Part shown: positions 14,163-37,819 of the stretch, in pieces | How the letters are laid out: each line of letters begins with the position of its first letter | Position numbering within the stretch: position 1 is the stretch's first letter | Source of the DNA: a phage | Length of the DNA: 47,489 nt | Assembly: GCA_025699765.1 (NCBI GenBank) | Contig: GCA_025699765.1_4134.1 | Direction: 5' to 3' (one strand) | Program-made: the position numbers and the translations under genes | The notes under the pieces: generated by a model | The model's input: the letters and a program-made list of their open reading frames with translations, nothing else | The model's database searches: none | What the model was told of the DNA's origin: nothing

Positions 14163-14182
14163 AAAAACCGCCAAACGGCGGC
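14163..14182 (-). terminator. Hairpin plus U-run (attenuator) between G-T and tape measure gene
   Basis: ccgccaaacggcgg stem-loop with an A6 run on the plus strand, directly after the T-frame stop. Confidence 0.4.
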
Positions 14183-14817
14183 TTAGTTATTCTGCTTAGC
14201 AATCATTTCAAGCGCTTTCGCTTCCATGATTCTAACGTCCTGCAATGCCAGTTCTTCATCATCTATTTTATAGATTTTGAACAGCATAGGCAAAACATTA
14301 TAGTCAAGACCATAAGCTCCAGCGCCTGAACTTCTCCACTGAGTGAGCATTGACGTAAAAACATTCCACGCCTTCACCATTTCAGCGTCGCCAATTATCG
14401 TTTCCGGTTCCTCGTCTTCATAGTCAGAAAGACTGAGGCCAACCGATCGTAATTGCTCTTCTGTCGGCGGTTTCTGATATAACAGATAAACCGCCCTTTT
14501 TAGTTTTTTGCGCGGTGTCCGGCGAGCGCCTTGATGTAAGTTGCCGTCAGATTGTACGCTGCGGAAGGGTAATACTGTACCAGTTTACGCGCATTCTCTT
14601 CGTTAAATTCTTCTTCCAGATTCCATCCTGATGCGATCTTAGTGATGAAATCGCTATCATTCATTTCGCCCTGCTTCGCATACATATCTTGCACTTCTTT
14701 ACTGGAAAGGTGGCGTACTGTAAAAATAATAGTCGCATCCTCGCCGTTTGGCATGGTGAACGTCACCGGAAGTTTGAAGTCTGGAAGCTGGCCCAACACG
14801 AAATTGAATTTAGCCAT
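14183..14817 (-). CDS. Tail assembly chaperone G-T fusion, made by programmed -1 ribosomal frameshift
   Basis: The -1 frame is open across the 3' end of G and continues to a stop at 14183. The slippery heptamer A_AAA_AAC (minus strand, plus-strand coordinates 14503-14509) sits immediately before the G stop codon. Confidence 0.65.
14500..14817 (-). CDS. Tail assembly chaperone G-like (in-frame product)
   Basis: 105-aa ORF between the major tail and tape measure genes, ending at the slippery site; the conserved G/GT position. Confidence 0.7.
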   Translation of the reverse strand: MAKFNFVLGQLPDFKLPVTFTMPNGEDATIIFTVRHLSSKEVQDMYAKQGEMNDSDFITKIASGWNLEEEFNEENARKLVQYYPSAAYNLTATYIKALAGHRAKN

Positions 14818-14930
14818 GATGTTTCTCCTGATTGGTCGATAGCACTTTTTGTTAAAAGTTAAGTGAATAAAGTTGATAGGATGATTTTACAGAAATGAAT
14901 AAGGGGGCGCAAGCCCCCTATGGGTGGTAT

Positions 14931-15599
14931 TTAAGCACCAGGCGATGCCAGAGTGGATGAGATGAAAGTAAAGTCACCTTTCAGGGATACGGCGAGTTCC
15001 ACCGTTTCCATTTCGTTAACCTGCGTGGATGGGATATCGTTAAACGACAAGATGCCAGCCCACATACGCATTTCGCTCGCTTTCGGAACGTACATTCGAA
15101 CCGCTGTTACCTGACCAGACGAATCCAGCTTGCGCAGAATCGGGTAGATCGGGTTATCAAATTCGTGCGCGAAAGTGTACGTTAGCGATACCGCAGATTT
15201 AAACGTTGGGATCTGCTGCTCTTTATCGTCTGACAAGCACTGATAAGTATAATACTGCTGCTCGCCGCCGTCCTGACCAATCTCCTGAACGCAAGGAATC
15301 TCAGTCCAGCCAGTAATTTTTGCAAAGCTCATCGTACCGCCAGCCGGAAAAACAAGAGTATCAGAGGTGTCAATTCCAGCAAGAGTGATGCTTGTTTCCT
15401 GAGATTCAGTAACAATTAGCACTCGACTAGCCATCTTAGCCCAAGTTGACTGAGTTACAATAACGTAATCGCCTTTTACTAAGTCACCTTTAGATGCAAC
15501 TGTAGCAACAGGATTTTTTGCGTTAGTGACAGCGGTCGCCTCAATCTCTTTTCCGCGAGAGGTTTCCACGAAAATTTGCGCGCCATTTGGTAAGTGCAT
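14931..15599 (-). CDS. Major tail protein
   Basis: Position directly upstream of the G/G-T chaperones; about 222 aa. Start refined to MHLPNGAQ with AAGGAG site. Confidence 0.7.
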   Translation of the reverse strand: MHLPNGAQIFVETSRGKEIEATAVTNAKNPVATVASKGDLVKGDYVIVTQSTWAKMASRVLIVTESQETSITLAGIDTSDTLVFPAGGTMSFAKITGWTEIPCVQEIGQDGGEQQYYTYQCLSDDKEQQIPTFKSAVSLTYTFAHEFDNPIYPILRKLDSSGQVTAVRMYVPKASEMRMWAGILSFNDIPSTQVNEMETVELAVSLKGDFTFISSTLASPGA

Positions 15600-15601
15600 A
15601 A

Positions 15602-16000
15602 TTAAGTCTCCTTTGTGTCTACTCGTACTGTGAAACGAACTGGAATCATCCATCCGCTTTCATGTTTAACAATTTGATGCACGATTGCACCCTCAAAAAT
15701 ATAACCAACGTTAAGCATTTTACCATCTTTGAAAAAATCGGCAATCTCTTTTGCTTTCAATCTTGCCTCATCAACGCCGGAGCCTGGAGGGAACACTACG
15801 CCGATCTGAACGATTGCGATGTAAGATTTACACTTTCGGTCAATTGATAGATAAAGCGTATCCCCTTCAATGTAGTTGAACCTTAGCCACATGCCGCCAT
15901 CCTTAGGTGGTGTAAAGTTCCTGTTTTCCATGTAGTGAGGAAAGTCTCTATACTTCGACAGAAATGCGGCGCGCGCCGCCGCTGATAACTCATAGTGCAT
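15602..16000 (-). CDS. Tail terminator / tail completion protein (putative)
   Basis: 132-aa ORF between the neck genes and the major tail gene, overlapping its neighbours; assigned by position only. Confidence 0.45.
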   Translation of the reverse strand: MHYELSAAARAAFLSKYRDFPHYMENRNFTPPKDGGMWLRFNYIEGDTLYLSIDRKCKSYIAIVQIGVVFPPGSGVDEARLKAKEIADFFKDGKMLNVGYIFEGAIVHQIVKHESGWMIPVRFTVRVDTKET

Positions 16001-37406: not shown

Positions 37407-37427
37407 AAAGGAGGCTAAGCCTCCTTT
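37407..37427. terminator. Bidirectional terminator (aggaggct-aagcctcct + T7)
   Basis: Perfect hairpin followed by a T7 run; overlaps the spanin stop codon on the other strand. Confidence 0.55.
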
Positions 37428-37819
37428 TTTTCGCCCTTACGAATTGAAAAATAAACCAGCAACAGACCAATGAGAACGAGGGTCCAACCAACTATAGGAT
37501 CATACCAGTTTCCGGGCTTAGTCACAGTGATGCTTTCAGCGTTAACCGTGTTAGCCTTAATGGTTGACACTTCAATTGACTTCTTCACGGAAGAGTCAAC
37601 CTTTCCTACATTGGACTTTTCAACTTTAACATCTCGCTTATCTTCGGATTTTGCGGTTACTCCTGCTAATTGCTTTGTGTTCTCCTCTCCAATCTGTGCT
37701 GTAACTTCCGGTTTAGATCCGATTAAACCGCTCAGGGCAGATGGCATCGAGCAACCGGATAGAGAAATAACACCAACAGCCACTACAATCGCAATGCATG
37801 TTTTCTTCAGTTTCATCAT
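37415..37819 (-). CDS. Unimolecular spanin (lipoprotein with C-terminal transmembrane anchor)
   Basis: N-terminal signal peptide with lipobox LSGC plus a C-terminal TMD ([15 protein letters not shown]); about 134 aa, the architecture described for T1 gp11; last gene of the lysis cassette. Confidence 0.7.

Follow-up and report, generated by a model that had tools for sequence, protein, structure and literature searches.

In the phage DNA analysed here (the window, 47,489 nucleotides long), gene G and the T frame that follows it very probably constitute one recoding unit, from which both G, a short tail assembly chaperone, and a longer G-T fusion are produced by way of a -1 ribosomal frameshift. 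The window belongs to a T1-like phage (Tunavirus) with ∼97% nucleotide identity to T1; across an 851-nt region, identity to Shigella phage SH6, to T1 and to other Tunavirus genomes amounts to 96.6-97.4%. The frameshift unit is already known, being annotated in T1.

Anatomy and setting of the G/T unit

The anatomy of the unit can be read directly from the minus strand (Table 1). Gene G closes with the codons CGC GCA AAA AAC TAA, and the slippery heptamer contained in them touches the zero-frame stop on its 3' side; sequence and translation agree here with the earlier note, which had placed A_AAA_AAC at 14503-14509 (minus strand) at the end of G, adjoining the stop codon. The -1 frame is already open inside G, 27 codons before the first T codon, and continues past the heptamer as CTA AAA AGG GCG GTT ..., from CTA 14503..14501 through AAC 14188..14186. 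The earlier note was right that this frame is open from inside G and ends at 14183, whereas the length it gave (about 108 codons) has to be corrected to 106. The predicted G-T fusion consequently comprises 211 aa (105 + 106). To judge how unusual such a layout is, we considered all in-frame XXXYYYZ heptamers within the window's 89 mechanical ORFs with a length of 80 aa or more: among the 54 tested, a long -1 extension follows only from the one at the end of G, reaching 105 codons past the zero-frame stop as compared to 30 for the next best. Because a single heptamer out of 54 has a long extension, and because both halves of the fusion match protein families, the G/T arrangement is more than chance.

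Table 1. Features of the G/T unit and of its flanks, listed in the direction of reading (positions are those of the window).
Feature	Position	Strand	Details and basis
Tail tube (major tail) protein gene, upstream neighbour	14931..15653	-	Pfam Phage_tail_3 PF08813, E=9.2e-71
Shine-Dalgarno AGGAG of gene G	14825..14829	-	7 nt 5' of ATG; read from sequence
Gene G, short tail assembly (tape measure) chaperone, 105 aa	14500..14817	-	ATG 14817 to TAA 14502..14500, 105 codons; ORF, translation, Pfam, PHROG
Slippery heptamer A_AAA_AAC, zero frame GCA AAA AAC	14503..14509	-	Sequence, correct phase
T segment, 106 codons (ends AKQNN) and TAA 14185..14183	14183..14503	-	Translation, Pfam, PHROG
Predicted stem-loop GGCGGUU-(UA bulge)-UCUG-UUAUAU-CAGA-AACCGCC	14466..14495	-	MFE fold, 11 bp, -16.1 kcal/mol
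Intrinsic-terminator-like hairpin and T-run over the T stop codon, before the tape measure gene	14165..14184	-	Terminator scan
Tape measure gene, downstream neighbour, ATG 14144, 957 aa	11271..14144	-	Pfam TMP_2 PF06791, E=1.3e-74; Tape_meas_lam_C PF09718, E=7e-25

Both halves of the predicted fusion have recognizable relatives. G matches Pfam PF08748 (Phage_TAC_4) over the entire profile (E=2.6e-37, 128.2 bits against a cut-off of 21.1; residues 1-105 on profile positions 1-124 of 124), and public sources call a protein identical to G 'tape measure chaperone' or 'tail assembly chaperone'. T matches Pfam PF08809 (DUF1799; E=2.6e-12, 47.2 bits against a cut-off of 26; residues 24-101 on profile positions 4-80 of 80). 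The PHROG matches of G are 569 and 17368, the latter being one 213-position profile on which G lies at 1-107 and T at 109-212; fused products evidently went into this profile, which aligns both G and T. When the fusion sequence was searched against the PDB, only chance-level matches to proteasome subunits came back (E≥0.08).

The surroundings of the unit are those of a long-tailed phage chaperone locus. The genes follow one another in the order tail terminator (PF13554), tail tube, G/T and tape measure, the last three on the same strand, and the tube-G/T-tape measure order is common to T1 and 16 other fetched loci; the position between tail tube and tape measure is the classical G/T site. The T1 and SH6 annotations give the upstream neighbour as major tail protein; its T1 start lies inside the mechanical ORF, past the first ATG, and the tape measure start in the T1 annotation lies 41 nt past the T stop. 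The earlier note had proposed the conserved G/G-T mechanism from the letters of the window, and this proposal is supported by the position of the unit, the protein families of its halves, the reading frame, the conserved slip site and the prior annotation.

In T1 (AY216660) and in Klebsiella phage Sweeny, the terminator-like hairpin over the T stop codon is listed as a rho-independent terminator. Another intrinsic-terminator-like hairpin lies at 14902-14919 (minus strand), between the tail tube gene and G, and the unit is thus flanked on both sides; the terminator scan found 6 such sites in 1.2 kb, as compared to 1.2 expected. In combination, the flanking hairpins may determine how much tube, chaperone and tape measure product is made relative to one another.

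Conservation of the slip site and alternative readings

A tblastn search with the fusion matched 1,146 phage records, 1,098 of which cover at least 80% of it, and among the 60 matches listed nearly all consist of two pieces, one per frame. For comparison of the slip sites we assembled 98 loci (18 annotated loci and 80 viral contigs). In 61 of the 98, G ends in NNA AAA AAC followed by TAA or TGA; these belong to Tunavirus, Tlsvirus, Warwickvirus, Kyungwonvirus, Hanrivervirus, Veterinaerplatzvirus and Vilniusvirus, and to three lineages outside Drexlerviridae, namely Dhillonvirus, Aeromonas Yanchengvirus and HK639, at 34-37% amino acid identity. The other endings are GCA AAA GTY/GCC TAA in 28 Webervirus loci (L008, L009, L073-L098), GCA AAG GTC TAA in six Rogunavirus loci (L007, L058-L062) and CAA AAG CAC TAA in one locus, phiKp_7-1 (L015); in one further locus (L014) the G motif was not found by the search pattern used. 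Conservation of the slip site extends to relatives with as little as about 30-37% protein identity. When the 49 distinct slip-site contexts are aligned without gaps, the three nucleotides A6, A7 and A8, the core of A_AAR, are invariant. The codon that supplies the first A of the heptamer encodes Ala, Val, Glu or Gln across the same 49 sequences. As A6-A8 are invariant while the encoded residue varies, the constraint on the slip site acts on the nucleotides and not on the amino acids. In every slip-site variant the A_AAR Lys codon is the penultimate codon of G.

Two distant relatives bracket the event particularly tightly. In Dhillonvirus JLBYU37 (L010, 736-742) and Aeromonas phage pAEv1818 (L011, 739-745), G ends in CGT GAA AAA AAC TAA, with a -1-frame TGA directly 5' of the heptamer and the zero-frame TAA directly 3' of it. 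With stops abutting the heptamer on both sides, the change of frame needed to read T can therefore occur only within these 7 nt.

A few of the retrieved records deserve separate mention. The frame is disrupted at ∼700-720 in Shigella phage 2019SD1 (MT360681; fetched twice, as L016 and L047), where GTAAAAAC (A5) stands in place of GTAAAAAAC (A6) of its relative aalborv, a 1-nt deletion that puts G out of frame. The A5 is likely a homopolymer error, because the record is flagged UNVERIFIED_ASMBLY. In Klebsiella phage KshKPC-M (L013), both G and T contain additional frame breaks. The records MG065640 and MG065649 (Campylobacter phages A14b and A143) and OR786094 (Streptococcus phage MBBL140) also carry a G/T unit, at 58-63% identity to that of the window; they fall among the enterobacterial Drexlerviridae matches, and their host labels look doubtful, pointing to contamination or mislabelling.

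In many public records T is given as a separate gene, a reading in which it would be translated from a start of its own (ATG 14380, 65 aa, or a non-canonical codon such as CTG 14485, 100 aa) and would never be fused to G. This reading has the deposited annotations on its side: gp42 of SH6 is a 65-aa 'tape measure chaperone', the SH2 protein has 89 aa, and HCQ2950996.1, a public TPA record from E. coli, is a 100-aa 'DUF1799 domain-containing protein' that equals the T frame of the window from CTG 14485 (14183-14485). However, annotators have settled on at least four different starts, partly non-canonical, that yield 65, 89, 100 or 104 aa, which argues that no real T start exists. Between the upstream stop and codon 41, the T frame of the window contains no ATG, GTG or TTG, and ATG 14380 (T codon 41) has no Shine-Dalgarno in its upstream sequence TTGGCGACGCTGAA. 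Moreover, the 41 codons 5' of this ATG evolve as coding sequence: they are 39-66% identical as protein in comparisons with nine other lineages, and their substitutions fall mostly at T-frame third positions (220 versus 114 and 98). Protein conservation starts exactly at the shift site, with the first post-shift codon (L-K/R-R-A-V-Y-L; LKRAVYL), and Webervirus, Dhillonvirus, HK639 and others lack the internal Met of T, their first candidate start lying in some cases as far in as codon 67. T has no usable start of its own, and we consider an independent, never fused T very unlikely.

T could also be joined to G at the level of the transcript, if RNA polymerase added one A in the A6 run (14509..14504) and thereby brought G and T into one frame. 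A homopolymeric run is indeed present, and the 2019SD1 assembly differs by one A in this run, though it is flagged as unverified; but A6 is shorter than the runs usually needed, as appreciable slippage by bacterial RNA polymerase usually takes runs of about 8-9 or more. Longer A or T runs are known to serve bacteria and phages for recoding by transcriptional slippage (PMC5009743), yet relatives with A4 (Webervirus GCAAAAGTY) or A3 (Rogunavirus GCAAAGGTC), which are unable to support such slippage, retain the G/T architecture, and what is conserved among them is the in-frame A_AAR tRNA-Lys motif beside the stop and not the length of the run. Slippage by the polymerase is therefore highly improbable. 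A last reading would make the open -1 frame a remnant without function and the heptamer at the end of G a coincidence. In-frame heptamers are common enough in the ORFs of the window, as counted above, and in 16 of the 89 ORFs the -1 frame stays open beyond the stop for 100 codons or more, mostly because it holds the next gene. However, T matches a Pfam family and is kept as a protein directly after G in more than 1,000 phage records, its substitutions follow the T codon phase, and the slip-site nucleotides are invariant where the amino acid varies. These conservation data effectively refute the remnant reading, to which we give next to no chance.

Proposed frameshift and its candidate stimulators

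In light of these results we infer that the G-T fusion is made by -1 frameshifting, in the following way. Ribosomes would begin at ATG 14817, most of them stopping at TAA 14502..14500 to release the 105-aa G, while a small fraction would slip 1 nt back on A_AAA_AAC (14509..14503). In the tandem model, tRNA-Lys would re-pair from AAA to AAA and tRNA-Asn from AAC to AAA, and the shifted ribosomes would read CUA AAA AGG ... as far as TAA 14185..14183, giving the 211-aa G-T with DUF1799 as its C-terminal half. The predicted junction is ...AGHRAKN-LKRAVY... for tandem slippage and ...AKK-LKR... if the P-site tRNA-Lys slips alone. The slippage would probably be aided by the adjacent stop, slow to decode, and in this clade by the 11-bp stem-loop. 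By analogy with lambda gpG/gpGT, many copies of G and few of G-T would coat the tape measure protein, with the T domain recruiting the tail tube protein, and neither G nor G-T would be present in the finished virion. In E. coli, -1 shifting on A_AAA_AAC is proven (IS1); there the site counts among the less efficient heptamers and has a low efficiency, >0.1% without stimulators (Sharma et al. 2014, PMC4066793). As lambda makes roughly 30 G per GT (PMC5009743), such a low-efficiency site would suit a G/G-T system well.

Two candidate stimulators are visible around the heptamer, the stop codon directly 3' of it and the predicted stem-loop, which begins 7 nt past it. Measured against dinucleotide shuffles, the stem-loop reaches a z of -2.0 only. 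When the sequence was recoded synonymously, keeping the T peptide and the codon usage of the phage, one of 5,000 recodings was as stable as the stem-loop, the average of the recodings being -5.7 kcal/mol (sd 2.7). On the 49-sequence alignment, 70.9% of the cells are paired, as compared to 35-49% when the 3' arm is slid, and 9 pairs show changes on both sides. Of 16 lineages put through similar recoding tests, Tunavirus, Tlsvirus, Hanrivervirus and Vilniusvirus alone showed excess stability; values were marginal for HK639 and the Aeromonas phage, and Rogunavirus, Veterinaerplatzvirus, Kyungwonvirus and others showed no excess. The folding and recoding data make the hairpin a plausible clade-specific enhancer of the frameshift, a role to which we assign about even chances. 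RNAalifold, run on all 49 distinct slip-site contexts, returned no consensus structure for the whole family, and we therefore dropped the idea of a family-wide RNA stimulator. Visual inspection of the stretch 6-17 nt upstream of the heptamer for a Shine-Dalgarno-like stimulator gave only an unconvincing GGA in the window and nothing consistent in the same region of relatives (GGGG, GGC, GGT). In Webervirus, a longer predicted structure begins right after the stop, ∼6 nt past the AAA codon.

The manner of slipping may differ in detail from the tandem model. Because the invariant element of the family is A_AAR with its Lys codon penultimate in G, slippage of a single tRNA beside the stop codon is a live alternative: the family-wide signal would be one tRNA-Lys slip on A_AAR one codon before the stop (a 'shifty stop'), with the second half of the site and the hairpin tuning the G:G-T ratio. 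The second half (AAC, GTY, GTC or CAC) and the 3' hairpin would then be free to turn over between genera, and the junction in the window would be AKK-LKR, its second Lys being read in the new frame. The turnover of the slip site in Webervirus, Rogunavirus and phiKp_7-1 around a constant A_AAR suggests single tRNA-Lys slippage in these phages. The window, with its full heptamer, permits tandem slippage, whereas relatives with A_AAA_GTY or A_AAG_GTC permit single-tRNA slippage only; the core A_AAA or A_AAG that is shared family-wide corresponds to the A_AAR tetranucleotide sites (Sharma et al. 2014), as in the G/T units of Webervirus and Rogunavirus. As an account of the whole family, we regard the single slip as possible, though rather unlikely, and if true it would be a modest refinement of a well-known recoding event and not a new system. 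An invariant A_AAR, a variable second codon and a clade-specific hairpin could guide reporter work on how phages set the G:G-T ratio.

Relation to known systems and to existing annotation

The closest counterpart of the unit is that of T1 itself. GenBank AY216660 lists CPTT1_038 as 'tape measure chaperone' and CPTT1_039, a two-piece join, as 'tape measure chaperone, frameshift product'; the two share a single ribosome-binding site, which the AGGAG upstream of G in the window matches. This T1 G/G-T is orf 40 of Roberts et al. 2004 (PMID 14972552). T1 and the window have in common the final codons CGC GCA AAA AAC TAA, the hairpin, the lengths of the products (105 and 211 aa), the neighbouring genes and the terminator after T, and differ by few substitutions, e.g. 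Asp for Glu in KI(D/E)DEEL of T and one base 3' of the hairpin. The window is a Tunavirus isolate or contig distinct from T1.

The G/G-T recoding unit is said to have been found conserved among long-tailed phages by Xu, Hendrix & Duda in 2004, and lambda gpG/gpGT was reportedly studied by Levin, Hendrix & Casjens in 1993 and by Xu, Hendrix & Duda in 2004, 2013 and 2014. Such a unit is expected to give two products with a common N-terminus in a fixed ratio, G being in large excess, with both required for tail assembly and neither present in virions. The slip site of lambda is G_GGA_AAG as opposed to A_AAA_AAC in the window, where, unlike in lambda, the heptamer directly adjoins the stop codon and is then followed by the predicted hairpin. 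The protein families differ as well, the G and T of lambda being distinct from the Phage_TAC_4 and DUF1799 families of the window. Akin to the window, lambda has gpG/gpGT between its major tail and tape measure genes, and a -1 shift late in G yields a longer and a shorter product with a common N-terminus, such that the chaperone logic is presumably alike (PMC5009743). In IS1, the insA-insB' frameshift uses the same A_AAA_AAC in E. coli and yields a small amount of fusion protein (PMC4066793). However, IS1 encodes a transposase with no stimulator established, whereas the site in the window serves a phage chaperone and has an adjacent stop and a clade-specific hairpin.

Existing annotation recognizes the unit unevenly. 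In Klebsiella phage Sweeny the joined frameshift product is annotated as in T1, and the genome announcement of its relative, Klebsiella phage Skenny, states the analogy to lambda G/GT (PMC6763657). The public record of the window apparently has no joined G-T CDS, and an exact look-up in the protein collection found neither the AKN-LKR nor the AKK-LKR fusion sequence. The searchable literature contained no experimental demonstration for T1-like phages, only statements at the level of annotation such as that for Skenny (PMC6763657). The chief value of the present analysis lies in annotation, the proper feature being a joined G-T CDS and not a separate hypothetical or DUF1799 gene. The G/T unit of the window raises no new question, and its site is a clean natural case of A_AAA_AAC beside a stop codon in an E. 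coli phage.

Another heptamer occurs in a 134-aa ORF at 37415-37819 (minus strand), directly after a 162-aa ORF. The 134-aa product has a lipoprotein-type N-terminus and a C-terminal hydrophobic segment, with no Pfam match, and it resembles a T1-type unimolecular spanin. The ORF ends in GAA AAA AAG GAG GCT TAG, with A_AAA_AAG, a heptamer that has been described as highly shifty, two codons before the stop (∼37423-37429), and the -1 frame is open for 33 codons. As a terminator-like hairpin, AAGGAGGC-TTA-GCCTCCTT followed by a T-run, begins at this heptamer, the -1 extension is probably meaningless.
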